From a virus: 64,000 nt of DNA. The notes under the pieces are model-generated. The model was not told the DNA's origin. It saw only the letters and a list, made by a program, of their open reading frames with translations, and ran no database searches. Location of the stretch: positions 1-64,000 of IMG/VR virus record IMGVR_UViG_3300033571_024432; one strand, given 5' to 3'. Below are positions 1,949 to 61,864 of the stretch, piece after piece. How positions within the stretch are numbered: the stretch's first letter is position 1; the number at the start of each line of letters is the position of its first letter. The position numbers and the translations under genes were made by a program.

Positions 1949-3226
1949 ATGATTATAACAGAAAAAAAAATTAGAATTTTAATTAAAAAATTATTAGAAA
2001 GTAATTTAACAGATCTAGAAAAAAGATACAAAGAAGATATTATACAAAAAAATTCTGATATTAAAAATAGATATAAACAAAAAAATTTAACTCCAAATAG
2101 TTGGGATTTTTTAGATTATACTGCTAATATTTTGAGAAGTTTAGATAAACCTGATCCTAAAATTTATGGTACAAATCATTTTTCGTTAGGACAAAAAATA
2201 GAGAAAGTAGACGAAATATTAAGAAACGATTTAGGTTTTAAGAAAGTAGGGTTTGGAGCATTTCGTGAAGTATATGCACGTGAAGATGTACCATTTATTG
2301 TTAAATTAGAAGCGGCTTCATTTGGAAATATAACTGGATCAAATTCAAATGAATATGATAAATATTTTAATTACGGTCCTGATAATTATCCTAGAAATGA
2401 TCTTTTTACAAAGATTTATGCATATGATCATAAAGATTCAGCATGGATTATATTTGAAAAAGTTAATGTATTTAGTCCAAATAATAAAAATTTAGTTATA
2501 TATGATATGTTCGCACCTTTTATAAATTTTTTAAGTAAAATACTAAATTTTATAATGAATGATTCTTATTATAGTAAATATTATAATCGTAGTAACTATT
2601 TAGATGCTATTATTAAAAAAGATGAATCATATGCAACAGAAATTTTTCATAATATTATAACATTTATTGAACAGGTATCAACTAATTATAAAAAAACTGG
2701 TGATTTACAAGAAGCATTTATTAATACTTTTATTAATTTGATATTGATATATGCATTTGGCAAACATATATATTCTATAGACAATCCTTTTACTAAGATG
2801 TATCATAAAGAAATAAATGAACAAAATAAATTTGTAAATATATTTAAAAAGAGATTATCAGATGCTAATATTAAGATTAAAATAACACCAGATATTTCAT
2901 ATATTTGTAACTTTTTAAAGAATGATGAAGTTAAAGATCTACATATTGGTAATGTAGGTTATAGAAATGATGCATTAACTACTAATAAAAATAAACCATG
3001 GGAGAGTTTTGTTATATTGGATTTTGGAGAATTTGGTAATTTAGATAAAATGTCTATAGAAATAGATGATAATCAATATAACCAAGAAGAATTAGATCAA
3101 CAAATGTTTAATGATTTAGAAAATTTATCAGATGAAGAGTTGAGTAGAATGGAAAACGAATCTTTTGATTTTGATGAAATGAATTATGATTATTTAGATG
3201 ATTTAGATGATGATAAAAAAGAATAA
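1949..3226 (+). CDS. Protein kinase-like enzyme, paralog 1, with N-terminal leader and acidic tail
   Basis: GFGAFREVY Gly-loop, FIVKLE, WIIFEKV hinge, DLHIGN catalytic loop, ILDFG. Start moved from 1910 to the ATG at 1949 (MIITEKKIRILIKKLLES). Confidence 0.8.
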   Translation: MIITEKKIRILIKKLLESNLTDLEKRYKEDIIQKNSDIKNRYKQKNLTPNSWDFLDYTANILRSLDKPDPKIYGTNHFSLGQKIEKVDEILRNDLGFKKVGFGAFREVYAREDVPFIVKLEAASFGNITGSNSNEYDKYFNYGPDNYPRNDLFTKIYAYDHKDSAWIIFEKVNVFSPNNKNLVIYDMFAPFINFLSKILNFIMNDSYYSKYYNRSNYLDAIIKKDESYATEIFHNIITFIEQVSTNYKKTGDLQEAFINTFINLILIYAFGKHIYSIDNPFTKMYHKEINEQNKFVNIFKKRLSDANIKIKITPDISYICNFLKNDEVKDLHIGNVGYRNDALTTNKNKPWESFVILDFGEFGNLDKMSIEIDDNQYNQEELDQQMFNDLENLSDEELSRMENESFDFDEMNYDYLDDLDDDKKE

Positions 3227-3244
3227 TAATTTTATATATAAATG

Positions 3245-3334
3245 ATCACCAGAACATCCAGAATTAATCTTATATTGAAGAATATAATTTATATTTATTT
3301 TATTACTTTATTTAATTCTGGATGTTCTGGCGAT
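3245..3334. repeat. 23-bp inverted repeat with one mismatch and a 44-nt AT-rich spacer
   Basis: atcaccagaacatccagaattaa (3245..3267) versus ttaattctggatgttctggcgat (3312..3334). Confidence 0.85.
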
Positions 3335-3356
3335 AAAATAATAAAATAATAAATAT

Positions 3357-3385
3357 TTGTAAAGTTTTAAATTTTTAATTATAAT
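3357..3385 (+). promoter_or_regulatory. Sigma70-type promoter TTGTAA-N17-TATAAT
   Basis: TTGTAA 3357-3362 and TATAAT 3380-3385, upstream of the ThyX-like cluster. Confidence 0.65.
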
Positions 3386-3436: not shown

Positions 3437-4381
3437 ATGACAGAGCAAAAAGGTTTTAAAAATAGTTTTCTAGATTCTGTAGGTGTAGAAATTGTTCGAA
3501 CAACACATGAAAAGCCATTTGAAATGTTTTGGGATTGGTTTAAACAAACATGGATTACATTACAAGATGTTAAATTTGATCATACAAATGAAGAACATTG
3601 GCAAGCTTGTTTAGATGTATTAAGTAGAAATGCACTTCCTACACCTATGGAAGTATTAAATTTTGAAATTAAAGTAACAGGTTTAAGTAGAGTTGCATTG
3701 GCACAAATCACAAGAGGTAGAGTAGGTTGGGCTTATGTTGTTGAATCTCAAATGCCTCAACATATTAATCATATGGTAACAATCCCAGCAAATATTGCTA
3801 GACATGAAAAATTCTCAGAAAGAGCACAATTATTAGCTAAATTATCACAAGATTTATATGATGATATGTATAATGATGGTATTCCACCTCAAGATTGTAG
3901 ATATTTAACTTTACATGGACAACAAACAGCAATGATTATGCAATGTAATTATGCTGCATTATTAGGGTATTTTGCAAGAAGATGCGAAAATGGTTTAACT
4001 GATGAACTCAATTTAGTAGGTAGATTAATTTTAAGGGAATTAAAAAATACATTTTTAAATGCAGACGGAACAGATAAATGTGAAGGTAGCGGTTGGTCAA
4101 TTTTACTAAATAAAATGGACGGCATGGGAGGAAGTAAAGTATGTCTAAATGTTGATAAAGTTTTTGGAAATACAGGTCGTGCTCCATCTGCAAATAATAA
4201 GGTTCCAACATTATTAGATGGTTCATGTGATTACGATTTTAGTAAATCAGCATGGTATTTTGAATTACAAGATTTACCTGAAGATTTATTATTTCCTGGT
4301 GAAAAAGAAATGATTGAAGATTTTAAAAACATTGGATTTGTAGGTAGATTAAAAAAGTTAGAAGAAAGTAGAAAGAAATAA
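3437..4381 (+). CDS. Divergent flavin-dependent thymidylate synthase (ThyX)-fold protein
   Basis: FEIKVTGLSRVALAQITRGRVGWAYVVESQ aligns with the ThyX RHRxxxxxxxSxR region; PPQDCRYL and CNYAALLGYFARRC align with later ThyX blocks. Confidence 0.7.
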   Translation: MTEQKGFKNSFLDSVGVEIVRTTHEKPFEMFWDWFKQTWITLQDVKFDHTNEEHWQACLDVLSRNALPTPMEVLNFEIKVTGLSRVALAQITRGRVGWAYVVESQMPQHINHMVTIPANIARHEKFSERAQLLAKLSQDLYDDMYNDGIPPQDCRYLTLHGQQTAMIMQCNYAALLGYFARRCENGLTDELNLVGRLILRELKNTFLNADGTDKCEGSGWSILLNKMDGMGGSKVCLNVDKVFGNTGRAPSANNKVPTLLDGSCDYDFSKSAWYFELQDLPEDLLFPGEKEMIEDFKNIGFVGRLKKLEESRKK

Positions 4382-4908
4382 TGTCAGTATTTATTTTTGA
4401 TGGTCCAGATGGTTGTGGTAAAACTACATTAGCTAAAAGAATATCTAAAGAATTAAATATGCCATATCATAAGAACCCATATGAACATGGTGAATGGAAA
4501 CACCCTGATAGATATAAACTTATGTTGAGATATACTGATCTTTATTTTTTAACATATTTAAAAAATTCTAGAAATGATGTATGTTTAGATAGATCATGGA
4601 CAACAGAATGGGTATATAGTCAAGTATTTAATAGAGGTAATGATTTTGAATTTCTTCATAAATTAGATGATTTATTATCGTCAATTGAAAACAGCGTATT
4701 AATTATTACAACAAGGACAAATTTACCAAATCAGGAAGACGAGTTAGAAGGAATTAATGATAATTGGTTTAAAATTAGAGACAAGTATGAAGAATTATCT
4801 AGTTGGACAAAAAACAAAGTGATTTATATCAATACAGAGAATAAAACGCAAGAAGAAACATATGTATATTGTTTAGAAAAATTAAAACAATTAGGATTAT
4901 TAAAATGA
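4381..4908 (+). CDS. Thymidylate/dNMP kinase-like P-loop protein
   Basis: FIFDGPDGCGKTT Walker A and CLDRSW..EWVYS (DR motif of TMP kinases). ATG overlaps the upstream stop. Confidence 0.8.
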   Translation: MSVFIFDGPDGCGKTTLAKRISKELNMPYHKNPYEHGEWKHPDRYKLMLRYTDLYFLTYLKNSRNDVCLDRSWTTEWVYSQVFNRGNDFEFLHKLDDLLSSIENSVLIITTRTNLPNQEDELEGINDNWFKIRDKYEELSSWTKNKVIYINTENKTQEETYVYCLEKLKQLGLLK

Positions 4909-5105
4909 GTAATTTAAAAGAAAATATTTATAATGATTTAGGTATTATTGAACTTAGAGAAAATTTAAAAAATCTTAATATAGAAATATCTAAAATTGAT
5001 ACAGAAATTTTGCAACTTGCACAAAAAAAATCATATTTACAATCATGTCTACATTCAATAAATAATGAATTGAATAAAGATTTATTAAATCAAAATTACA
5101 AATAA
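4905..5105 (+). CDS. Small coiled-coil hypothetical protein
   Basis: ATG at 4905 overlaps the upstream stop; heptad pattern. Confidence 0.55.
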   Translation: MSNLKENIYNDLGIIELRENLKNLNIEISKIDTEILQLAQKKSYLQSCLHSINNELNKDLLNQNYK

Positions 5106-5118
5106 GGAAAAATATACG

Positions 5119-5496
5119 ATGAATTTAGAACCCTTTGGACCACATCTTACATTTGATATAAAATGTAAAAATACTGAAGCATTAAACGACTACAATAAAG
5201 TTTTTAAGTTTTTACATGAATTGCCTGATAAAATTGGAATGACAAAAATTACGCAACCATATGTTTTTCCATATGCAGGCTTAGTTCCTGAAGATGAAGG
5301 TATTACAGGGATTGTGATTATTGCTGAATCACATATTAGTATTCATACGTTTCCTATGAAAAATTACGCGTTTATTGATATTTTTTCATGCAAACCATTT
5401 GATTGGTCAAATATCAGTAATATTATCAAAGATACATTTCAAGCTGATGAAATGGAATTTAATATAGTACAAAGAGGAAAAGATTTTCCTAGATAA
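5119..5496 (+). CDS. speD: S-adenosylmethionine decarboxylase proenzyme (pyruvoyl-dependent)
   Basis: FGPHLTFD...GITGIVIIAE|SHISIHTFP...AFIDIFSCKPFD...RG; the self-cleavage site E-S is intact. Confidence 0.9.
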   Translation: MNLEPFGPHLTFDIKCKNTEALNDYNKVFKFLHELPDKIGMTKITQPYVFPYAGLVPEDEGITGIVIIAESHISIHTFPMKNYAFIDIFSCKPFDWSNISNIIKDTFQADEMEFNIVQRGKDFPR

Positions 5497-7205: not shown

Positions 7206-7248
7206 ATCCTTTATAAATTAAAAAAATAAAAACAAAGGATATTTTATT

Positions 7249-7464
7249 ATGCAATTAACTCCAGAACAAGTAGGTTCAGTCAATCTTTTATTAGCAGCAG
7301 CTCAATTAGCACAAAAAAGAGGCGCTTTTTCATTGAAAGAAGCACACGCTTTACAAGAAGCAATTGAACTACTAGCACCTCATACAGCTTCAGAAGAAGA
7401 AATGCAACAAATGCATCAAGCACAACAAGAACAAGAATTAAATCAAGAAAGAACAGAAAAATAA
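7249..7464 (+). CDS. Hypothetical protein
   Basis: RBS AAGGA; downstream of the promoter at 7177. Confidence 0.7.
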   Translation: MQLTPEQVGSVNLLLAAAQLAQKRGAFSLKEAHALQEAIELLAPHTASEEEMQQMHQAQQEQELNQERTEK

Positions 7465-7509
7465 TTTTTTTTGTGTAAAATAATTTTTTATTAATATTTA
7501 TAATTAAGC

Positions 7510-7547
7510 TCATGCCAATTGACAAACGGAATATACACGTGGCATGA
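7510..7547 (+). promoter_or_regulatory. Leader hairpin upstream of 7580
   Basis: tcatgcca (7510-7517) pairs with tggcatga (7540-7547) in an unusually GC-rich intergenic patch. Confidence 0.45.
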
Positions 7548-7579
7548 AATCATGTATACTATAAAAATAGGAGAGTCAA

Positions 7580-8062
7580 ATGCCAAAGATTATCATTGAT
7601 GACACAAAAGGTCTATATCAAACATCAGGTAAGGGTGTGGTCGGTTTAACACAATCCAAGACAGTAAATGTCGCTTGGGTATCAGGTGCTACAATTAGTT
7701 CAGGCGCAATTGTTGTACCAGCAAATTCTTTAATTACAGCTTTTCATACAGTTGTAACTACAACATTAGTAGGTGGCGCAACCCCATCAGTAACTGTAGG
7801 TACTACTGTAGCTGGTAATGAATTAGCTCTATCTAAACAAATTTCAAATACAGCAGCACAGGCTGTTGCTGGAAAAGGCCAAAGTACTAATCCTGAATTA
7901 AACACAGCTTTAGCAGCCGATGCAGGTAATGAACAATTAGTAATTGTGGCTGGTCAAGCTTATAGAGCCGCTGAAACAACTGCACATTTTACAATTACAG
8001 CTGCTGCTAATTTAACAGCAGGTGCTGCACAATTTACAGTTGAATTTATTACATTTGCGTAA
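7580..8062 (+). CDS. Putative virion structural protein (decoration or fibre-like), paralog A
   Basis: Ala/Gly/Thr/Val-rich, AGGAG RBS. Shares N-terminal KIIIDDxKGLYQT and C-terminal FxVEFITF with 8080..8610. Lies upstream of neck genes. Confidence 0.55.
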   Translation: MPKIIIDDTKGLYQTSGKGVVGLTQSKTVNVAWVSGATISSGAIVVPANSLITAFHTVVTTTLVGGATPSVTVGTTVAGNELALSKQISNTAAQAVAGKGQSTNPELNTALAADAGNEQLVIVAGQAYRAAETTAHFTITAAANLTAGAAQFTVEFITFA

Positions 8063-8079
8063 GAATAGAGGTAAAGATT

Positions 8080-8610
8080 ATGTCAGTTAAAATTATTATT
8101 GATGATGCCAAAGGTTTGTATCAAACTGGTGCAACTTCTGGCGGTGTGGTAGGTATTAAACAAACAAGATCTTCCTCTGGCGTTGCAGCTGGTGGTAATG
8201 ATTTAATTGTATCAGGCCCTATTACAATTCCAGCTAATTCTTTAATCACAGGCTATCATGCTGTAATTACTTCAGCATTAGGCTTTGCAGATGTTGCAGA
8301 TGTAGGTTTCAGTTTTGGAAACAATGCTGATGGTACAGATGAAACATATTTACAATTAGTTGATAATTCGCTTTGTGATGCTGCTGCTGATGCATTAAAT
8401 GCACTTGCTGTAGGTATTGGAAATAGCACTTCTTCAAGTTTATCAACAGGTTTAGATACAGCCGATACAAATACACCTCTTACAATGAAGGCAGGGGCTC
8501 AAAAAATTGGTAATGCAGACGTAGATATTTATGGTGCTTTAGTTGCTAGTCAAAATATTGATGCAGGTGGTACTGTGCAATTTGTTGTTGAATTTATAAC
8601 ATTTTCTTAA
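8080..8610 (+). CDS. Putative virion structural protein (decoration or fibre-like), paralog B
   Basis: Tandem paralog of 7580..8062 (shared IPANSLIT and VEFITF). Confidence 0.55.
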   Translation: MSVKIIIDDAKGLYQTGATSGGVVGIKQTRSSSGVAAGGNDLIVSGPITIPANSLITGYHAVITSALGFADVADVGFSFGNNADGTDETYLQLVDNSLCDAAADALNALAVGIGNSTSSSLSTGLDTADTNTPLTMKAGAQKIGNADVDIYGALVASQNIDAGGTVQFVVEFITFS

Positions 8611-8621
8611 GGAGATTCTAA

Positions 8622-8927
8622 ATGAGTGAAGAAAAAAAGGCAGACGCTGTCGTCGAAGAAAAAGAAGTCAAAAAATCTGCCAAAAAATCAGAAGAAGTTA
8701 AAGCTGAGGTTAAGGTTGCAGAACCTAAAAAAGAAGTTAAAGAAGTTAAGGTAACAAATGTTAAAAAAGAATTTGTTGTAGGCGCCAAAGTTGTAGATAA
8801 GAAAAAAAGACAATTTACTATTCATAGTTTTCCGGAAGGTGAATTACACGACTTGTCTAATATTGTTTTAAAAAATGCTGATGACGTATTAAGTATACAA
8901 GTTAAAGGCAAGTTGCAATTAGTTTAA
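8622..8927 (+). CDS. Lys/Glu-rich hypothetical protein
   Basis: AAGGAG RBS; low-complexity charged N-half. Confidence 0.7.
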   Translation: MSEEKKADAVVEEKEVKKSAKKSEEVKAEVKVAEPKKEVKEVKVTNVKKEFVVGAKVVDKKKRQFTIHSFPEGELHDLSNIVLKNADDVLSIQVKGKLQLV

Positions 8928-8953
8928 GTTTATATAATTTAATAGAATAACGT

Positions 8954-9016
8954 AAAATCCTCTCGAGATATTCATAATTAGAAATAATAGAATATTGATG
9001 AGAGGATTTTTTTTTT
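8954..9016 (+). promoter_or_regulatory. Long hairpin covering the RBS of the neck gene, followed by a U-tract
   Basis: aaaatcctctc (8954-8964) pairs with gagaggatttt (9000-9010); inner atattc/gaatat; T-run up to the ATG at 9017. Confidence 0.6.
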
Positions 9017-10285
9017 ATGGCTAGTTTTGCAAATACTACAAATGCAACACCATTTGCAATATATGATGATGACATACATTTTCAGATGGATGCAGATAGT
9101 ATGTTAACATTTGTTAGACGTAAATTGGGTGATGATATAATTAGCGTTGAATTAACAAATAAACAAATATGGGCAGCTTTTGAGGAAGCAACATTAGAAT
9201 ATTCAAGATTTATAAATGAAAATATGCTTGAAAGTCATATGCATAGTTTATTAGGGATTCCAATCACAAATGTAAATACAAATATAGGACCTAATGGTGC
9301 AGAAGGAAAATTACCTAAAGAAAATTTTGATATATTTCTTAGAAAAGCTGAAGTATATGCAACAGAAGGTGGCGTTGCAGGTAATGTTGATCATTATATT
9401 GGATATATTAAATTAGAACAAGGTCGACAAGATTATAATATTACAACAGAACTTACATATAAAAAAGACGGGCAAGAATATTTGGTATTTAATCAGTTAG
9501 GATTAGGAGAATTTGAACCTGACCCAGATGATCCTACTCAATTAATTTTTGTTGAATATCCAGCAGGTGATTCTAGAAAACGTCAAAAAACAAAACCTAG
9601 AATATATGAAATAATGCATTTTAGTCCTCAGGCAGCATATCGTTTTTTTGATACAACCAGTTCAATAAATTATTTAAATAATCAGTTTGCTTTTGAATCA
9701 TTTACACCTGAAACTGTTTTTTATGTTTTACCTGTTTTTGAAGATGTTTTACGTGCAGGGCAATTAGATATAAGTAATCGTATAAGACGTTCTAATTACA
9801 GTTATGAATTACATGGTAATAATATTCGAATATATCCTAAACCAACGCAAGAAAATCCATATAGTTTATTTATTAGATTTGCATTTCCTTTAAATCCTTT
9901 AAAACCAGATATACCTGATGATAAAATTAACGGTGTATCAAATATTAGTAATGTTCCATATGGAAATTTGCAATATAACGGTTTAAATTCAATTGCTAGG
10001 CATTGGATTAGAGAATTTACTTTGGCTTTAAGTCGAGAAATGTTAGGTATAGTTAGAAGTAAATTCTCAAGTATTCCTATACCTGGGGGGGATTTGCAGT
10101 TAAATGGTTCTGATTTAATTTCTAGCGGTCGTGATGATCAAGAGAAATTAAAAACTCAATTAAAAGAGACATTAGAAAAGATGACAATGTCTAAGATTCT
10201 TGAAAATCAAAATAATCAAGCCGATCAATTACAAAATTTATTGAAAAAAATACCCATTCCAAATGGGCCATTTTTGATGGGATAA
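9017..10285 (+). CDS. Neck protein (T4 gp13-like adaptor)
   Basis: RRKLG...VELTNKQI..AFEEA N-terminus and WIREFTLAL.REMLG.VRSKF..IPIPGG.LQLNG C-terminus; gene position. Confidence 0.75.
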   Translation: MASFANTTNATPFAIYDDDIHFQMDADSMLTFVRRKLGDDIISVELTNKQIWAAFEEATLEYSRFINENMLESHMHSLLGIPITNVNTNIGPNGAEGKLPKENFDIFLRKAEVYATEGGVAGNVDHYIGYIKLEQGRQDYNITTELTYKKDGQEYLVFNQLGLGEFEPDPDDPTQLIFVEYPAGDSRKRQKTKPRIYEIMHFSPQAAYRFFDTTSSINYLNNQFAFESFTPETVFYVLPVFEDVLRAGQLDISNRIRRSNYSYELHGNNIRIYPKPTQENPYSLFIRFAFPLNPLKPDIPDDKINGVSNISNVPYGNLQYNGLNSIARHWIREFTLALSREMLGIVRSKFSSIPIPGGDLQLNGSDLISSGRDDQEKLKTQLKETLEKMTMSKILENQNNQADQLQNLLKKIPIPNGPFLMG

Positions 10286-10295
10286 AGTGAATTAA

Positions 10296-10976
10296 ATGGC
10301 AAGATTATTTTTTACTGAAAAAGAAGCAGATCTGTTTTCAGATTTAACAAAAGAAATTATTAAAGATGTTATAGGTCAAAAGATATACTATTATCATGTT
10401 AGAGAAGATTTATCAAATCCACATGCATTGTATGAGGAAAGTATAGAAAAAGCGTTTGATCCACCTATTGAAATTGATTGTTTAGTTGAATGGCAAGCAG
10501 CTGATGTTAAATTGACTAATTTTGGATATGAACAAACAAAAAACATTACTGTTTTTTTACATCCTCGTGATTTAAAAGATAAAGATTTAAGTATAAATGA
10601 AGGTGATTTTTTTCAATTCGGTGAATATTTTTTTGAAGCTACAACAATTATTGTTGAAAAAATTATGTTTGGTCAAACTGAACGTATTGCTGGTTATAAA
10701 ATGCAAGGTAAACAAGCACGTATTAATCTTATTAATAAACGATTAAATGGACCTGTTAGTGATATGTATATTGACGAAAATGCAACACAAAAAGTTTTTG
10801 AGCAACAAAGAGGTTTTGAAAAAACATCATCTGGTATTGAAACTGGTGATACAAGACAATTAAGAAAAGATGGTATATTGGAAGAACCAATTACAGGACA
10901 AAAGCAAGTAAAACCCCAACCTAGCAAAATAAATGCAAATACTATAAAATCATCATTTTATGGTGAAGGAGATTAA
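10296..10976 (+). CDS. Neck protein (T4 gp14-like head closure)
   Basis: GQKIYYY...LYEES..KAFDPPIEI...EGDFFQFGE; follows the gp13-like gene. Confidence 0.65.
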   Translation: MARLFFTEKEADLFSDLTKEIIKDVIGQKIYYYHVREDLSNPHALYEESIEKAFDPPIEIDCLVEWQAADVKLTNFGYEQTKNITVFLHPRDLKDKDLSINEGDFFQFGEYFFEATTIIVEKIMFGQTERIAGYKMQGKQARINLINKRLNGPVSDMYIDENATQKVFEQQRGFEKTSSGIETGDTRQLRKDGILEEPITGQKQVKPQPSKINANTIKSSFYGEGD

Positions 10977-10978
10977 AA

Positions 10979-12166
10979 ATGACTACAAGATTTACCAGGG
11001 ATGATATAGATTTTAATGCAGTCGCAACTGGTTATGAAGGTGTAAATTTTACAGGATTAACAATTCCTTCATGTGGAATTGAAGATTTAGATAAAGCTGT
11101 TTTTAATCTTTTTGATAAAGAAATACCTTTATTTTATGAATTAGATGGAGAAAGAAAAAGAATACCAGTTATTTTTGCAACAGGTGAACGTTTTGCAATA
11201 TTAAGAAAAAAGAAGCCAATTAGAGATAGAAGCGGTGCAATAATATTACCTTTAATTTCTATATCTAGGACATCATTAGAACAAGGCGCGCCAAAAGGTA
11301 CAGCTGATAATGCTATGTTACCGCATATTATAAAAAGACGTTTATCTGAAGAAGATTTACAAGAACAACAACTTAGAAATAAAGAAAATCTTGAAAATGT
11401 AAAAAATACATTAGGACAAGAAGAAGGAAATACTTCTGTAAATATTTTAAATAAAAATTTGAGTTTAATACCTAAAATGTCTAACTCAAATATTTATGAA
11501 ATAATAGAAATGCCACCTATAAATTATATGGGTGCAACTTACGAAATTGCTATTTGGACAAACTTTCAGCAAGAAGCGAATAGAATATTTGAAACAATTT
11601 TAAAATCATATACAATAAATGTTAGTCAACAATTTAGACTAGATTCAGATAAACCATATTGGTTTTCAGGTTTTGTAAGTAGTCAAATATCTACAGATAC
11701 ATCATATTCAGATATGACAGAAAATGAAAGATATGTTAAAATGAATTTGACATTAACAGCAAATGGTTATGTTATTTTACCTAATATGATGGGTGGTAAA
11801 ACAGCATTAAGATCTTTTATTTCTGCACCTAAAATTTCTTTTGATGTTTATCAAGATGAATCAGCTGTTCTACCTTTACATGGTTTAGGAGGACCTATTG
11901 ATAACACTTTTGATTCACACGTTTTTGATGATTTACAAGCAGAAGATGATCCTATGCCTTCATCTAATATAGGTATTGATTCAATGAATAACCAAATTAA
12001 TTTATTAACGAATAAACCAGGGTATATCGCCCAAAATGATATTAGAGACCCTAATAAAACTAATATTACAAAATATGGTGTATATGATATTAGCAGAAAA
12101 AAAGGTGAAGTCGCATATAAAGGTCTAGCTGCCCAAAATATTTTATTAAATTTCTCTAATAAATAA
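10979..12166 (+). CDS. Tail terminator/completion protein (gp15-like)
   Basis: IPVIFATGERFA...LPLISISRT; lies between the neck and sheath genes. Confidence 0.6.
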   Translation: MTTRFTRDDIDFNAVATGYEGVNFTGLTIPSCGIEDLDKAVFNLFDKEIPLFYELDGERKRIPVIFATGERFAILRKKKPIRDRSGAIILPLISISRTSLEQGAPKGTADNAMLPHIIKRRLSEEDLQEQQLRNKENLENVKNTLGQEEGNTSVNILNKNLSLIPKMSNSNIYEIIEMPPINYMGATYEIAIWTNFQQEANRIFETILKSYTINVSQQFRLDSDKPYWFSGFVSSQISTDTSYSDMTENERYVKMNLTLTANGYVILPNMMGGKTALRSFISAPKISFDVYQDESAVLPLHGLGGPIDNTFDSHVFDDLQAEDDPMPSSNIGIDSMNNQINLLTNKPGYIAQNDIRDPNKTNITKYGVYDISRKKGEVAYKGLAAQNILLNFSNK

Positions 12167-12264: not shown

Positions 12265-15016
12265 ATGAGCGAGCAAGTATTCAAATCACCAGGATTTTTT
12301 GAAAGAGAAATCGAGGTGCAATCAAAACCTCCCAAAAAAGAACCTAATTCATCTCCAGTTGGTATTATTGGCGCAGCTGAAAAAGGCCCGGCTTTCGTAC
12401 CAATCATTTTAAATTCAATGGATGATTATACCAATGTCTTTGGAGATGTACAAAAGGATAAACTTGCAGGACACGCAGTATCAGAATTTTTTACAGTAAA
12501 ACAAGGCGGTACAGGGGCAATTCAATATATTAGAACATTAGGAAATTCAGATAAATCAGGTTTTACTGCAGATATGCAATTATTATGTTCTACTCACCAA
12601 ATTGATGTAAATGAAAACAAGGTTTCAAATAATTTTGCAGGCGCTGATCAATTAGCAGCTGATGGTAAATTATTACGTGCTGTTTTTATATTACATAAAG
12701 ACTGCACTTTATCAATTGCAAGTGGAAAATTAACAGTTAATGTAGGTTTAACAGGAATTAAAGCAAGAAGTGTTGTAATATCTTTTGACCAAAACGATAA
12801 TAATTATTTGGATAAAGTATTAAATACTGATCCATTTAAATTGGAAGAATATGGATATTATCTATATGCACATTTTCCAATTCAAAGCATTTATGCATCA
12901 GCAGTTGCTGCTGAATTAATAACACTTAATAATGGTGATTTTTCAAAGAAATTCAGTTCTCCTAAATCGCCTAAGTTTATAAGTCAGCCATTTGGTTCAA
13001 AAGAATATGAATTATTTGAAATCGAAACAATTGATGATGGTATTTATGCAGCAGGAAAATATAAAATTAGTATCAGCAATTTAAGAGCATCTACAGATGT
13101 TGATTATAAATTTGGAACATTTAATTTAGAGGTTAGAGATTTAAATGATACTGATGATTCACCTTTAATATATGAATCATATACAAATTGTTCTTTAGAT
13201 CCTTCATCAAGTAATTATATTGCAAAATTAATTGGTAATAAAAAAGTAAAATTTGATGATAGTGTTGCAACAGAAAAAAGATTAATTACATCAGGAGAAT
13301 ATGATAATCAATCAAATAGAATTAGAATAGTTATATCTGAAGATGTAAAAAATGGAATTATCCCTCCTGAATCATTACCTTTTGGTTTTAAAGGTATTCC
13401 AACAATTTCTACCGATATTACTTCTGGTACTGATGATTATGTTTCACCGCCATTACCATTTCGATTTAAGGTAACAAAAGGAAAATTTGATGTTACCAAT
13501 ACATCAGTTATTGGTGCTAAAGGACAATATGAAAATGTTGATGTAAATAAATATTGGGGTATTATTAATTTTAATATTGATAGTATCGATACACCTAATA
13601 ATAGAGCAACAACAGGTATGCAAACTAATTCATTAGTTGAAAATTTATGTAAATTTATGGGTAATAATGTTACAACAGCTGAAAATTCAATAGTTTCTGA
13701 TGATTTAAATTCTAATAAATTTACTTTGGCAAGAGTTGTATTTAATGAAACAACAGTTGGTGATGTATCTGATCAAGTATCTGAAAGTTTTGGTAGCGCT
13801 GTGTATTGGAGAGGTGGTACATATGATCCAGTTACATATAAAATATTAGTTGCTGCTAATGATACAAGAGTATCAATGGCATCAGTATTATCAGAAAGTA
13901 AAGAAAAATTCAATAAATTTTCAGCATTTTCAAAATTTACAGCACCATTGTTTGGAGGTTTTGATGGTTTAAATATATTTGATAAAGATTCAGTTAATAT
14001 GAATGACAGATCTTGTTCAACAGAAGCTGGTGGGAAAGCTATTGGATATGCTAGTGGTTTGAATGATACAACAGATGCAAGTTTACAAGGTGAAAAATTA
14101 TCTAATAATATTGTTTCTGCATATATTGATGCTGTAAATATAATGTTAGAACCAGCAACTGCATATGTACATGTTATATTATTGCCTGGTATTAGAGAAA
14201 AATTAATTACAAATCATGTAGCATTAAAAACAGCAGAATTTGGTAAAGCAATTTATTTGATGGATATTACATTATGATTCAGCTGGTGGTAGATTATTTG
14301 GTGATAAATCATTAGCTGATAAAAAGGCAGATATTTCAAGTACTATTTCAAAATTGAATGCTAGAAATTTTGATAATAATTATGTTGCAACATATTTTCC
14401 TGATGTATTATTTGATGATGCATCAGATAAAATTGTAGGATTATCAAAGAGAGTTATAAATTTACCTTCTTCTGTTATTGCGATGAGTGCATTAGCCAAG
14501 AGTGAAGGATCTAGAACAATTCAACCATGGTTTGCTCCTGCAGGTTTTGGTAATGGTGCTAATCCTAGAATTAAAGGTGTTACTGTAAGATTGAAAGCTG
14601 ATGATCGTGATGATTTATATGAAAACAAAATTAATCCTATTGCAACTTTTCCAACAAATCAATATGTTATTTTTGGTCAAAAAACTTTACAAGTTTCAAA
14701 TACTGCATTAAGTAGAGTCAATGTAAGAAGATTAATGATTGAAGTTAAACGTGGTGTTGAAAGAGCAGCACAAGCTTTATTATTTGAACCAAATAATCAA
14801 AGAACAAGAGATAATTTTTCAAATACTGTAAATGCATTTTTATCAAATATCAAATTAAATAGTGGTATTGAAAATTATAGAATTGTTATTAGTAATGATC
14901 CTAATGAAATTGATCAAAATATTTTAAGTGGTAAAATAATTATAGTACCTACAAGAGTTGTTGAATTTATTGCTATGGATTTTGTTGTAACTAATAGCGG
15001 TGTAACATTTGCATAA
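12265..15016 (+). CDS. Tail sheath protein 1, broken by a +1 frameshift near 14269
   Basis: SPGFFEREI and KGPAFVP N-terminus; WFAPAG, INPIA and RVNVRRL C-terminus. Frame 1 ends MDITL* at 14277, and the +1 frame from 14270 (HYDSAGG...KLNARNFD) is open into ORF 14354..15016. Confidence 0.8.
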
Positions 15017-15109: not shown

Positions 15110-18100
15110 ATGGCCGGACAAGGTTCAGCTAGAGTTTCCCTTAGGGAAATTGATTTATCAGCGCCAACGCCTGTTAATAGAGTGCTAACAGGTACACCAG
15201 CAGGTGTAGTAGGGCGTGCAAAGCGTGGTCCTGCATTCATACCCACAATTTTTTCAAATATTCAAGAATTTCAAGATATATTTGGCTCTTTCAGTGATAA
15301 AGGTCTTGATTCAAACTCAAATTTGTTCGGGCCATTGGCAGTTAATGAATGGATGAGCGGCAATCCTGGACAAGGTGCTTTTGTTCGTTTATTAGGTGCT
15401 GGTAATACACCTGGTTTTACAGTTGGTACAAAACAACTAGGTACAAATGGTAATGAGATTAGTAATTCTTTTGCAAACAATACTAATAATGTTAATATCG
15501 CTGGTAAAACATTTATGTTAGGTCATTTTGCAAAAAGTGTTACAAATTCAAAATATCTATCAGAATCAGGTATAAAAAAAATACCACTAAGAGAAGTGTC
15601 AAAAATAGTAGTAACTAATACATCAGATGGTATTAACACAGGTGATACTTTGACAATCAAGGCATATGGAGATCCTCAGTCTGAAGAAAAAACTTTTACA
15701 TTTGATGGCAATGGGCCTGCATCAGCAACTGTTATTCAACATAATGGTACTGATGCAATAGCTACTGCAACTGCAATTAAAAATGCAATTAATTCAGCTT
15801 TTAATACTACAAAAAAAGTTATTGCAACATCTTCAACTAATACTGTTACATTAACACAATTTGTAGATGATATATCAGGTAATATTAATATTTCTGTTAC
15901 AAAAACAGGCGCAGCTGGATTAACAATTACAATGAATGATTTATCATCTTCTGACACACAATTATTTACATTATTACGTGGTGTTTTAATGACTCCACAT
16001 AATGTAAAAGCAACTGTTGAATCAAATATTGCAGGTAAAGAAGAAGCGCCTCAGAATAATCAAGCAGATTCTGATGTAGGATATAGCATTGGTAATATTG
16101 ATACAACTACTTTAGGTTTTACTTTATATTTAGTTGGACATTTAGATACAAATATTAATAAGATTGAATGTTCTTTTGATCCAAGTCAATCAAATTATTT
16201 TGCTAAAGTTTTGAATAAAGATCCACATAAGATTGAAGAATATGGTCACTATTTATATTCACATTATGATATTGATAAAAATATTATTTCATTACCTTCT
16301 GATGGTGATTTAAAAAAAGAAGATAATACAAATGCAAGCATTACAGCATGCGGAACTTTTTGTGTATCTAGTGGAGAGGTTGTGTTTGAAAATTTTCAAA
16401 AAAGATTTCAAACAGCTGTTTCACCTTGGGTAGTAAGTCAAGATTTTGGTATTGAACCTGATGGTAGTAATAATAGTGGTATTGGTGATTCTGTAATTAA
16501 ATTATTTAGATTTCATGCATTGGATGATGGTGAAATAGGAAATAATCAAATTAAGGTTACAGTATCAAATTTGGTTAAAGGTGAGTTTGGTGGATTTGGT
16601 ACATTTGATGTTGCTATTGAAAAATTAGATACAAACCCATTGAAGAATTCAGTATTAGTAGGTTGGAAAAGATTAAGTCTAGATCCTAATTCATTAAATT
16701 ATATAGCACGTATAATTGGTGATAAAAGAGTATATTGGGATTTTGATGCAAGTAAACCTGGTTTGCAAGAAGAAGGATCATATAGTGTAACAAATAAATA
16801 TGTAAGAGTTGAAGTGTCAGATGAGGTAAAAAATTTAGATTTACCTGCTGAAACTTTACCTTGTGGTTTTGCTGGAATTAAGCAATTGCATTTCACAAAA
16901 GAAAATGGTGATGCATATTTTGTAGAAAACACTAAGTTATTGACTAATTATTTAAAATATATGACAGAGCCACCTATACCTATGATTAGATCAATTGGTA
17001 AAATAGTTCAAAGTGCAACTGAATCTAAGGAACCAAAAGTTATGCCTTGGGGTATAAAATTTGCTGAAAAACTTAATTTAGATGTAGGTGATAATGGGTT
17101 TAAGGAATATATTGAACAAAGATTTAATAATAGTATTAAAAATTATTCAAAATTATTTAATGAAAATATTTGGAATATTAAATATATTGAAGGTGATTCT
17201 ACAAAATCTCAGATTGATTATGCAAATGATCATAATTTCTTTCATTTAGAAAAAATTCGTATAACAAAAAAGGTAGATAATTCAATTGATAATACAAAAT
17301 GGGGTGATGCAATATTTGTTAGAAATTCTGATGTTTCAAGCGATACAGCACCTACTGACGCATCTGCATCTAGACGTTTTTTTAGAATGAAAAATGATTT
17401 AAGCTTAAGTAATAGTAAATATTTATCATTTAGCTTCTTTATGCAAGGTGGATTTGATGGTTTAAATATTTTTGATATTGATCAACATCATTTATCTGAT
17501 GCTGCTTGTGTAAAAGAAGCTAAAACACAAAATAAAACAGGTTCATCAATTGAAACATATCAGAAAGCTATAGATGTATATTCAGATAAAGCAGCTGCAG
17601 AAATTCAGTTATTGGTTGTACCTGGTATTAGAGAACCATCTATTACAAATTATGGTGTGTTAGCATCTGAGAGTCGTTTTGATACATTATATTTGATGGA
17701 TCCTGAGCAAGTTGATGCGACTGGCACTGTAATTGTTGATAGTGAAACAATACCATCAGTTAATAAAACAATTCAGACATTTGCAAGTAGATCATTAGAT
17801 ACATCATTTGCTGCTTCATTTTTTCCAGATGTTGTATTAAATAAACCAAATGGTGGTTCTATTAAAGTTCCTCCAACAATTGCAGCATTAGGTGTAATGA
17901 GTCGTGCAGATAATGGTGGTAATGCTCCATGGTATGCTCCTGCAGGTATTAATAGAGGTTTAGTTAATGCATCAGCAACAGAATTTTCTATTAGTCGTGA
18001 GCAGTTAGATGAGTTATATGATAATGATATTAATCCAATATATATACCTGCTGGTAGAGATCAAGTATATGTATTTGGACAAAAAACATTATTGAAGAAT

Positions 18101-18418
18101 CCATCTGCATTGGATAGAATAAATGTTAGACGTTTATTAATTTATGTTAGACGTAAAGTTAAACAAATAGCAAATTCATTCTTATTTTCGCCAAATAGAG
18201 AAGATACATTAAAAGCATTTTCAAATGCTGTTGAACCGATTATGGCAAATATTAAAGCGCAACAAGGTGTTGAAAGATATAAAGTGCAGATTGATACATC
18301 TACAACAACTCAATCAGATGTTGAGAATAATACAATTCGTGGCAAAATATATTTACAACCAACAAAGTCAACTGAGTTTATTTCTCTTGACTTTGAAGTT
18401 AGAAATTCAATTGATTAA
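15110..18418 (+). CDS. Tail sheath protein 2 (intact)
   Basis: RGPAFIP, GGFDGLNIF, PWYAPAG..RG, INPI, FGQKTL, LDRINVRRLL, RGKIYLQPTKS.EFI. Confidence 0.92.
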   Translation: MAGQGSARVSLREIDLSAPTPVNRVLTGTPAGVVGRAKRGPAFIPTIFSNIQEFQDIFGSFSDKGLDSNSNLFGPLAVNEWMSGNPGQGAFVRLLGAGNTPGFTVGTKQLGTNGNEISNSFANNTNNVNIAGKTFMLGHFAKSVTNSKYLSESGIKKIPLREVSKIVVTNTSDGINTGDTLTIKAYGDPQSEEKTFTFDGNGPASATVIQHNGTDAIATATAIKNAINSAFNTTKKVIATSSTNTVTLTQFVDDISGNINISVTKTGAAGLTITMNDLSSSDTQLFTLLRGVLMTPHNVKATVESNIAGKEEAPQNNQADSDVGYSIGNIDTTTLGFTLYLVGHLDTNINKIECSFDPSQSNYFAKVLNKDPHKIEEYGHYLYSHYDIDKNIISLPSDGDLKKEDNTNASITACGTFCVSSGEVVFENFQKRFQTAVSPWVVSQDFGIEPDGSNNSGIGDSVIKLFRFHALDDGEIGNNQIKVTVSNLVKGEFGGFGTFDVAIEKLDTNPLKNSVLVGWKRLSLDPNSLNYIARIIGDKRVYWDFDASKPGLQEEGSYSVTNKYVRVEVSDEVKNLDLPAETLPCGFAGIKQLHFTKENGDAYFVENTKLLTNYLKYMTEPPIPMIRSIGKIVQSATESKEPKVMPWGIKFAEKLNLDVGDNGFKEYIEQRFNNSIKNYSKLFNENIWNIKYIEGDSTKSQIDYANDHNFFHLEKIRITKKVDNSIDNTKWGDAIFVRNSDVSSDTAPTDASASRRFFRMKNDLSLSNSKYLSFSFFMQGGFDGLNIFDIDQHHLSDAACVKEAKTQNKTGSSIETYQKAIDVYSDKAAAEIQLLVVPGIREPSITNYGVLASESRFDTLYLMDPEQVDATGTVIVDSETIPSVNKTIQTFASRSLDTSFAASFFPDVVLNKPNGGSIKVPPTIAALGVMSRADNGGNAPWYAPAGINRGLVNASATEFSISREQLDELYDNDINPIYIPAGRDQVYVFGQKTLLKNPSALDRINVRRLLIYVRRKVKQIANSFLFSPNREDTLKAFSNAVEPIMANIKAQQGVERYKVQIDTSTTTQSDVENNTIRGKIYLQPTKSTEFISLDFEVRNSID

Positions 18419-61168: not shown

Positions 61169-61864
61169 ATGGTAGAATATAATAACAAAATTTATTTATA
61201 TGAAGATAATATAGGATATGTTGAGTATATTCAACATGTTGGTAATGATTTAACAATCGTTAATGCTGCGCGTGTATCGACAGGAAAAGAATCTGTAAAT
61301 TTTGAAGAGAAAGATAGGAAATTATTAGATTTTCTGATCAAATCAGGACATACATCAACTCTTGAACATAATATCTTAACTGTTAGATGTAAAGTTCCAA
61401 TGTTTATTTCTAAACAACATATGAGGCATAGAACACAATCATATAATGAAATAAGTAGAAGATATACAGCAGAAAAAATTGAATTTTATATCCCTGATTC
61501 ATTAAGACCGCAGGATAAAAAGAATCGTCAAGCAACATTGATGGAAGAATATAATCCTTTATTAGAAACAACAGGCTTTGATGCTATTAATAGTTTAAGA
61601 TTACATTGTGAAAATTCAAAAAAAGTATATGATGAAATGATTCAAAAAGGTGTAGGAAGAGAAATGGCTAGAATGTATTTACCTCAGAATTTATATACTA
61701 CATATTGGGCTACAGCTAATTTAAATAATTGGATGGATTTTGTATCTAAAAGATCTCATATAGATGCGCAATATGAGATTAGACAATTGGCTGAAGGTGT
61801 TGAAAAAATTATTAGAGATTTATGGCCTTTTGCATATGAATCATATTTAAATAATAAAAAATAA
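61169..61864 (+). CDS. thyX: Canonical flavin-dependent thymidylate synthase
   Basis: IVNAARVS, GHTSTLEH, RHRTQSYNEISRRY, AQYEIR. Confidence 0.95.
   Translation: MVEYNNKIYLYEDNIGYVEYIQHVGNDLTIVNAARVSTGKESVNFEEKDRKLLDFLIKSGHTSTLEHNILTVRCKVPMFISKQHMRHRTQSYNEISRRYTAEKIEFYIPDSLRPQDKKNRQATLMEEYNPLLETTGFDAINSLRLHCENSKKVYDEMIQKGVGREMARMYLPQNLYTTYWATANLNNWMDFVSKRSHIDAQYEIRQLAEGVEKIIRDLWPFAYESYLNNKK

Follow-up and report, generated by a model that had tools for sequence, protein, structure and literature searches.

The pyrimidine-modifying synthases of phages characterized so far are, to our knowledge, all homologs of ThyA. Among them, RB69 gp48 and DLP3 gp80 are synthases of 5-hydroxy-deoxycytidine monophosphate (5-hydroxy-dCMP); the RB69 enzyme uses flavin and O2, and a cognate deoxynucleoside monophosphate (dNMP) kinase is needed for the base to appear in DNA (PMC13326640). 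Here we describe a two-gene module from IMG/VR virus record IMGVR_UViG_3300033571_024432 (G000) that appears to follow this known logic, a repurposed thymidylate synthase with its own kinase, yet is built on the ThyX fold. The window that we analyzed is the first 64 kb of the 116.7-kb record. It encodes, on the plus strand, a divergent ThyX-fold protein of 314 amino acids at 3437-4381 (the ThyX-like protein) and, directly behind it at 4381-4908, a P-loop kinase of 175 amino acids with the fold shared by thymidylate kinases and deoxynucleoside kinases (TMPK/dNK). By analogy, the 5-hydroxy-dCMP synthase of RB69 and DLP3 appears to be the closest functional precedent for this module.

The RB69/DLP3, T4 gp42/gp1, and SPO1-type pathways all follow the same scheme, in which a repurposed thymidylate synthase homolog is served by a dedicated kinase. 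Systems of the RB69/DLP3 type combine a ThyA fold with a kinase of the T4 gp1 type, whereas the module described here combines a ThyX fold with a TMPK/dNK-like kinase. In relatives of the window, genes for sugar or phosphocholine transfer follow the pair. The thymidine hypermodification pathways of the phiW-14, M6, and ViI type involve a ThyA-type hydroxymethylase acting on deoxyuridine monophosphate (dUMP), a 5-hmdU DNA kinase, and aGPT-Pplase, whereas G000 has no ThyA-family gene.

Two described systems involve additional members of the ThyX family. PolB of Streptomyces cacaoi (PDB 4P5B) is a ThyX paralog neofunctionalized as a UMP/dUMP C5-methylase in polyoxin biosynthesis (PMC5003785). As proposed for the phage protein, of which it is a top structural match, PolB is an additional ThyX put to use in a different pathway. 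PolB retains the RHR and S-x-R motifs and the tyrosine and still methylates, whereas the phage family has lost these residues; PolB serves antibiotic synthesis, whereas the phage family sits in a replication module. It is the sole neofunctionalized ThyX paralog in the literature that we found, which otherwise consisted of routine phage genome announcements. Bacillus phage SP-15, a 222-kb myovirus with 5-dihydroxypentyluracil in its DNA and half of its thymine replaced, carries two Thy1 proteins, gp9 and gp130, and its authors hypothesized that one is a thymidylate synthase and the divergent one a hydroxymethyl-dUMP synthase (PMC5977210). In the SP-15 genome (KT624200, L072:5512-7098), gp9, the other of the two, is directly followed by gp10, a dNK-family deoxynucleoside kinase; its sequence shows KYR where RHR would stand and a long insert ahead of SRRY. 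SP-15 is like G000 in having two Thy1-family proteins, one of them beside a dNK-family kinase. SP-15 gp130 is no close relative of the ThyX-like protein (12% identity, a query-normalized TM-score of 0.43 by Foldseek, and different motifs).

The open reading frame (ORF) at 3437-4381 reads TRGRVGWAYVVESQM, with the motif region ...TRGRVGWAYVVESQMPQ. It matches the Pfam family Thy1 (PF02511) at 6.6e-19 and 68.9 bits (cutoff, 24.8), over residues 50 to 205 only, and its 50.3 bits against TIGR02170 fall below the thyX equivalog cutoff of 87.9. The AlphaFold2 (AF2) model has a predicted local distance difference test score (pLDDT) of 95.2, and its top Foldseek matches in the PDB are the ThyX proteins of Mycobacterium tuberculosis and Thermotoga maritima and PolB, with E values of ~1e-8 and target-normalized TM-scores of 0.6 to 0.77 against the ThyX matches. 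The fold is thus that of canonical ThyX, or flavin-dependent thymidylate synthase (FDTS; PF02511, TIGR02170; T. maritima TM0449 and M. tuberculosis ThyX; EC 2.1.1.148), from which the phage family differs by the replacements H53L, H79G, E86V, R90M, and Y91P, by a C-terminal extension, and by forming a separate clade. The extension is about 110 amino acids long and conserved, with the motifs DKVFGNTGR and DYDFSKSAWY...LLFPGEKEM and the invariant residues D240, G244, N245, G247, R248, S271, E276, and E289. The ESM Atlas offered only generic "Thy1" cluster names for this protein, and its full-length structural relatives in BFVD came from uncultured phages only.

The comparison of active sites is based on hidden Markov model alignment to T. 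maritima ThyX and on an unbiased column-by-column comparison of 53 canonical homologs with 97 family sequences; the structure model is a monomer without ligands. Residues H53, E58, Q75, R78, H79, R80, E86, S88, R90, Y91, E144, R147, N163, R174, and E182 are numbered as in T. maritima ThyX. Canonical ThyX proteins share 37 sites with a conservation of 80% or more, and 20 of these are unchanged in the ThyX-like family, which retains E58, Q75, R78, R80, S88, R147, N163, R174, and E182. The dUMP-binding residues Arg147 and Arg174 correspond to R155 and R182, which are invariant in 97 of 97 aligned members.

Other sites have been switched throughout the family: H53L, H79G, R90M, Y91P, and E144Q, together with AQxEIR to LTDELN. 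In the ThyX-like protein itself, E86 is replaced by V. The H53, H79, R90, and Y91 positions are 87 to 100% conserved among the 53 canonical proteins. Site 53, whose histidine in ThyX presumably stacks on the ring of folate or NADPH, is His in 96% of them, while 84% of the 97 family members have Leu there. Where canonical proteins have the ThyX motif RHR-x7/8-S-x-R-Y, the phage protein has RGR-x8-S-Q-M-P, keeping two arginines and the serine alone, and where they have GH(E/T)(T/S)P.EH it has ALPTPMEV. The initial annotation had pointed to a rewritten signature (His to Gly and the last Arg to Met); the rewrite is real, and the G...MP pattern recurs in 116 of 120 family members. Those canonical proteins that are closest to the family have the sequence GH.S..EH...SRxLLAQLTRHRIGxSYSVQSQRY, with the same 8-residue spacing as in the family, so that S104 can be matched securely to S88 and M106 to R90.

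The changed residues have known roles. In ThyX, S88 and Y91 are critical for activity, R90 has also been named critical for methylene transfer, and R90 is proposed to tune Y91 as an acid that aids methylene transfer from the flavin carbinolamine (PMC11940539). For PolB, the dUMP phosphate is bound by the counterparts of H79 and R90, of which the latter also touches O4, and the E86 counterpart makes contact with O3' (PMC5003785). The pattern of retained and replaced residues suggests that nucleotide binding, and probably flavin binding, survive in the ThyX-like protein and that folate-dependent reductive methylation in its known form would have been lost.

The family is large and distinct and was seen in viral and metagenome sequence only. 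Among 5.8 billion proteins searched there were 142 clusters at 90% identity, almost all with a length of about 308 amino acids and all metagenomic, and a profile search of 1.84 billion cluster representatives (50% identity) gave 24 with E values of ≤1e-30. About 30 cluster representatives span the whole length of the protein, including the C-terminal extension, and column identity is strong over the whole protein (A1 mean, 54%). No close copy was found in representative genomes of 185,579 bacterial and archaeal species, on which ground we rejected a host or cellular origin. Among 50,697 deposited phage records there was no member, and none came from cultured phages. Full-text literature searches turned up no description of the family.

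In a maximum-likelihood tree, the 97 ThyX-like members and 53 canonical ThyX proteins fall on separate sides of one branch, with a support value for the ThyX-like clade of 97.7 in the Shimodaira-Hasegawa-like approximate likelihood ratio test (SH-aLRT) and a stem length of 1.18. The family has a single origin. The two Thy1 proteins of G000 show no significant similarity to each other by BLASTP (E = 0.41) and so are not recent duplicates; this result and the separate clade on its long stem led us to reject recent duplication of canonical thyX. The suggestion that the second ThyX is no plain duplicate is thus borne out by both its family-wide rewired active site and its phylogenetic position.

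The canonical gene is present as well. The ORF at 61169-61864 (plus strand, 231 amino acids) reads MRHRTQSYNEISRRY and contains the complete motif set GHTSTLEH, RHRTQSYNEISRRY, ARMYLP, and KRSHIDAQYEIR; against TIGR02170 it scores 166.5 bits, above the cutoff of 87.9. The ORFs and this thyX lie exactly where the initial annotation had placed them, and its reading of 3437-4381 as a Thy1 homolog was correct. Canonical ThyX and the ThyX-like gene occur together in G000, in G001, in G002 (93% complete), and in G003, which are large relatives or fragments. In G003, the record behind locus L010, a canonical ThyX gene is directly followed by a canonical TMP kinase gene (84797-85923; PF02223, 40.4 bits), and the ThyX-like gene with its kinase lies about 10 kb away, giving two parallel synthase-kinase pairs. 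ThyA was found neither in G000 to G003 nor in G005.

The kinase is translationally coupled to the ThyX-like gene, as had been proposed: the stop codon of 3437-4381 and the ATG of 4381-4908 overlap by 1 base (TAATG). It matches phrog_761, "thymidylate kinase," at 6.7e-15, and has the P-loop DGPDGCGKTT and, as its DR(Y/H)-type motif, LDRSW. Its AF2 model (pLDDT, 89) is most similar in Foldseek to the TMP kinases of Thermus, yeast, and Aquifex, to YorR of SPbeta, and to dNKs (E 5e-7). The earlier label of TMP-kinase-like holds for the fold, as judged from phrog_761 and Foldseek, but not at the level of curated TMP-kinase scores, which the protein fails for both PF02223 (21 bits versus 27) and TIGR00041 (27.4 versus 83.25). 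The TMPK/dNK assignment is sound at the fold level, and we rejected a general AAA or P-loop ATPase in its favor.

To describe gene neighborhoods we used 51 related loci, 29 from IMG/VR found with the family profile and 22 found with the profile of a distant subgroup; the neighborhood statistics are for IMG/VR contigs from pattern scans, which favor closer relatives. In 43 of the 51 loci, no more than about 3 kb separates the ThyX-like gene from a kinase homolog, and these loci span three subgroups that are 22 to 60% identical. Among loci with an identity of 56% or more for which there is downstream DNA, the kinase is present in 16 of 16, either directly after the ThyX-like gene or at most about 2 kb away. 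The 140-amino-acid neighbor (LDGIDKTGKD) in the subgroup with 40 to 44% identity is a shortened kinase homolog (hhalign probability, 92.5%; E 5e-7), and in the most distant subgroup one or the other form of the kinase occurs in 18 of 22 loci. In the reverse direction, a search of IMG/VR with the kinase profile found 17 of 17 loci on contigs that bear the ThyX-like gene, one of them at a contig edge. The kinase is an obligate partner of the ThyX-like gene. The combination typical of base replacement, a thymidylate synthase homolog with altered catalytic residues beside a cognate kinase, was therefore found in 43 of 51 loci and again in the reverse search, in agreement with the idea of a repurposed synthase and its own dNMP kinase.

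At some loci a mobile gene or a methyltransferase gene is inserted between the two partners: a NUMOD3/TnsA-like endonuclease gene in L012 (7014-7871), L014, and L016 and a class I methyltransferase gene in L013 (6936-7985). It is possible that mobile endonucleases relocated the module or broke it up.

Most relatives carry the pair within a replication and nucleotide-metabolism module, adjoining DnaE. A nucleoside 2-deoxyribosyltransferase homolog is encoded at 47 of 51 loci. True transferases score far better for this protein (best PDB match, 6evs at 5e-25) than does DNPH1 (only 2e-3), and for this reason we do not favor a DNPH1-type dNMP hydrolase. A 5'-deoxynucleotidase of either of two unrelated folds occurs at 45 of 51 loci, as a fusion of MazG/dUTPase_2 with NT5C (5'(3')-deoxyribonucleotidase) or as an HD-type YfbR-like protein. 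In many large relatives the gene immediately preceding the ThyX-like gene encodes the MazG/dUTPase_2-NT5C fusion (L003:3123-4088; cluster c3, 12 loci), and in small phages the same slot holds the HD YfbR-like 5'-deoxynucleotidase, sometimes fused to a trimeric dUTPase (L071:7954-8889).

Eight loci have a gene for a PyrK/FNR-like oxidoreductase after the kinase: L006 (7426-8022), L007, L008, L010, L011, L014, L016, and L023. The protein is about 190 amino acids long, has PGQC, GPxGxGF, and GGTG motifs, and matches by profile the PyrK subunit of dihydroorotate dehydrogenase B and further reductases of the FNR family at 9e-5. It is possible that it is a dedicated flavin reductase for the ThyX-like enzyme, and the presence of such a partner argues that the ThyX-like enzyme is still redox active.

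Since the rewired second ThyX is always paired with a kinase of its own, it probably makes an unusual DNA pyrimidine. We give roughly even chances to the proposition that the two-gene module at 3437-4381 and 4381-4908 makes a noncanonical pyrimidine deoxynucleotide. The product would be a C5-modified dUMP or dCMP, carrying a hydroxy, hydroxymethyl, or similar group, that enters DNA. We postulate that the ThyX-like enzyme is neofunctionalized, that it binds a pyrimidine (deoxy)nucleoside monophosphate and probably a flavin, and that it would convert a pyrimidine dNMP to a C5-modified form by flavin chemistry without folate. The dedicated TMPK-fold kinase would phosphorylate the modified product, which could pass through the triphosphate pool into phage DNA, while the canonical ThyX encoded at 61169 would go on making deoxythymidine monophosphate (dTMP) in parallel. 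The coexistence of the two enzymes fits a cytosine substrate or partial replacement of thymine, and loss of the O4-contacting R90 would be compatible with dCMP as the substrate.

A bolder form of this proposal, which we offer tentatively and consider unlikely to hold in all its parts, is that this is the first ThyX-derived phage enzyme for a new DNA pyrimidine: a flavin-dependent, folate-independent C5-hydroxylase or hydroxymethylase acting on dUMP or dCMP, reduced in some lineages by its own FNR-like partner, with a product that is phosphorylated by the paired kinase and built into DNA. Some small phages would then decorate the base, for example with phosphocholine (LicA-LicC-BCCT-LicD) or through a glycosyltransferase.

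Several observations weigh against a modified pyrimidine as the product. In G005, a complete phage genome of 58 kb, the ThyX-like gene is the sole Thy1 homolog, and in small phages of this kind it is therefore possibly the plain thymidylate synthase. The partner set of dUTPase, nucleotidase, deoxyribosyltransferase, and kinase would also suit ordinary dTTP supply or salvage. Because the deoxyribosyltransferase-like partner resembles true transferases, the case for destruction of a canonical nucleotide is weaker. Finally, neither the nucleotidase partner nor the reductase turned up in the 116.7 kb of G000.

The main alternative is that the ThyX-like protein continues to work as a dTMP synthase, on a rebuilt site, and that its kinase is a TMP kinase, the two forming a second dTTP line for a genome that is 75% A+T. 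The window has a G+C content of 25%, the Thy1 fold and the nucleotide-binding Arg, Ser, and Gln residues are retained, the neighbors (dUTPase, also fused to HD; the TMPK-fold kinase; and DnaE) are classical for dTTP supply, and G005 encodes no Thy1 homolog besides the ThyX-like protein and no ThyA. Set against these points are the family-wide conversion of H53, H79, R90, and Y91 to L, G, M, and P, at a site where S88, Y91, and R90 are tied to methylene transfer (PMC11940539), and the score below the thyX equivalog cutoff. Large phages, moreover, already have a canonical ThyX, G003 has a canonical TMP kinase as well, and both an FNR-like reductase and a C-terminal extension of about 110 amino acids would be superfluous for an ordinary ThyX. 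We regard this alternative as unlikely, although it is a serious competitor. Were dTMP the product after all, ThyX would be able to work without His53, Arg90, and Tyr91, which bears on its debated mechanism and on the design of ThyX-targeted drugs.

A less probable explanation is that the ThyX-like protein is a noncatalytic nucleotide- or flavin-binding regulator or a subunit that coassembles with the ThyX of host or phage, or that it acts on a nucleoside or free base in a salvage loop of deoxyribosyltransferase, nucleotidase, and kinase. The loss of H79, R90, and E86, which in ThyX and PolB contact the dUMP phosphate and O3' (PMC5003785), would be expected in that case, as would the near-constant company of a true nucleoside 2-deoxyribosyltransferase and a 5'-deoxynucleotidase and the dNK-like DRS/DRA motif of the kinase. 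The phosphate-binding residues S88, R147, and R78 are nevertheless retained, conservation is very strong over the whole protein (the A1 mean column identity given above), the FNR-like reductase partner suggests catalysis, and small phages with the ThyX-like gene have no phage ThyX with which it could pair.

Least credible, and in our view very improbable, is the scheme of the initial annotation in which the ThyX-like protein, the kinase, and a SpeD encoded downstream jointly make an amine-substituted DNA pyrimidine of the aminopropyl or putrescinyl type: although the genes form a same-strand, close-packed run in G000, L001, and L002, decarboxylases participate in known thymidine hypermodification pathways (PMC8989533), and the SpeD homologs of phages include some that decarboxylate arginine or ornithine (PMC9992855, PMC10407285), speD lies beside the pair in 2 of 51 loci, G001 to G005 have no AdoMet_dc match, the 116.7 kb of G000 yielded no aminopropyltransferase, the kinase has a TMPK/dNK fold, and stand-alone speD genes are very common in aquatic phages (PMC9992855).

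The gene in question, at 5119-5496 on the plus strand, encodes a class 1 pyruvoyl AdoMet decarboxylase homolog of the SpeD/SpeH type with 125 amino acids. It matches AdoMet_dc (PF02675) at 5.9e-26 and 91.4 bits, its AESHISIHTFP motif contains an intact Glu-Ser self-cleavage site (AE|SH) of the class 1 domain, and its 73.2 bits against TIGR03330 lie just below the cutoff of 75.65. Its best phage matches are in a 735-kb uncultured phage (62%) and Microcystis phage MaAM05 (56%) and among cyanophage speD genes. In being a small class 1 pyruvoyl enzyme, it resembles the stand-alone AdoMetDC/SpeD genes of cyanophages and pelagiphages, and AdoMetDC is the commonest polyamine gene in phage genomes, often standing alone, with some homologs neofunctionalized to arginine or ornithine decarboxylases (PMC9992855, PMC10407285).

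The speD gene adjoins the pair only in the two closest relatives, L001 and L002 (78 to 81% identity), and is absent from the flanks of the other 49 loci; the five further genomes without an AdoMet_dc match include the 93%-complete, 318-kb record and the complete 58-kb phage. An aminopropyltransferase, for which the initial annotation advised looking elsewhere in the genome, was sought as a spermidine synthase-type enzyme, and none was found in the 116.7 kb of G000. Conservation of the proposed trio therefore extends to the ThyX-like gene and kinase but not to speD. Against the condition that the initial annotation had set for refutation, a lack of linkage among the three genes in relatives, the pair holds up and the trio does not. 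Given the lack of linkage outside L001 and L002 and the failure to find an aminopropyltransferase, we rejected SpeD as part of the pathway and as its supplier of amine; most likely it is a separate polyamine auxiliary gene that lies beside the pair only in a small sublineage, where it would act independently of the module.

The run itself is on one strand and close-packed, as described earlier, but a small ORF of 78 amino acids with a TTG start (4869-5105, plus strand) stands between the kinase and speD. Copies that are 50 to 54% identical occupy the same place in L001 and L002, and the ORF has no Pfam or PHROG matches. The promoter that was said to lead the run did not stand up. It is a sigma-70-like hexamer pair, TTGTAA-17-TATAAT, at 3357-3385 on the plus strand that matches 10 of 12 positions, which is weak evidence; 33 sites of this type were found where 31 are expected by chance in DNA with 25% GC. 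Just upstream of this pair, in the intergenic region ahead of the ThyX-like gene, AT-rich inverted repeats occupy 3222-3357; an imperfect 46-nucleotide inverted repeat there has a GC-richer core (CACCAGAACATCCAGAATTAA / TTAATTCTGGATGTTCTGG) and could be the terminator of the upstream gene or a regulatory hairpin.

If a ThyX fold has indeed been recruited to make a modified pyrimidine, it would represent a second, independent route to modified DNA bases and would point to flavin chemistry on nucleotides that is new. A large set of phages from water and gut, uncultured and ranging from small to very large, would then have DNA that is possibly resistant to restriction and that may cause irregularities when sequenced or cloned. 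With about 310 amino acids the family is compact; it has a high-confidence fold and comes with its own kinase, which makes it directly amenable to RB69-style coexpression followed by liquid chromatography-mass spectrometry.

The arrangement in G000 departs from that of most relatives. Just past the end of the window, beside canonical ThyX, positions 64127-71425 encode a deoxyribosyltransferase, a MazG-like protein, and DnaE. The MazG-like gene (64127-64495) is the only candidate found in G000 for an enzyme that would remove a canonical dNTP or dNMP, whereas relatives have the NT5C-MazG fusion or the HD 5'-deoxynucleotidase beside the ThyX-like gene. In G000 the ThyX-like gene and kinase have moved beside speD and genes resembling GIY-YIG homing endonucleases. 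Two such GIY-YIG/T5orf172 ORFs lie at 1272-1628 and 1668-1925 on the plus strand (Pfam GIY-YIG, 1.2e-21; T5orf172/MUG113), and L001 and L005 likewise have a GIY-YIG homolog beside the pair. With a completeness of 44% for G000, as estimated by CheckV, the phage genome would measure roughly 250 kb or more.

In phages of about 55 kb (L018 [7228-11078], L021, L024, L026, L056, and L070), the ThyX-like gene and a short kinase gene are directly followed by a complete phosphocholine cassette made up of a LicA-like choline kinase, a LicC-like nucleotidyltransferase, a BCCT choline transporter (1.9e-113), and LicD (3e-32), and then by a dUTPase. The cassette recurs in two ThyX-like subgroups. Its phosphocholine could be added to a hydroxylated DNA base, or the cassette may serve to alter the surface of the host. 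In L003 (4941-5957) and L004 (4904-5914), the ThyX-like gene is immediately preceded by a glutamine synthetase-like gene (Gln-synt_C, 5.5e-16).

Elsewhere in the window, tail-sheath genes start at about 11 kb. The ORF at 10979-12166 contains a T4 gp15-like tail-sheath stabilizer domain, and two adjoining ORFs, 14354-15016 (220 amino acids) and 15110-18418 (1,102 amino acids), each have a C-terminal Phage_sheath_1C domain; from these positions, the tail module begins about 5 kb past speD. The ORFs at 7580-8062 and 8080-8610, for which there were no Pfam or PHROG matches, are tandem paralogs (37 to 39% identity, by tblastn against L002) that are kept in both L001 and L002.

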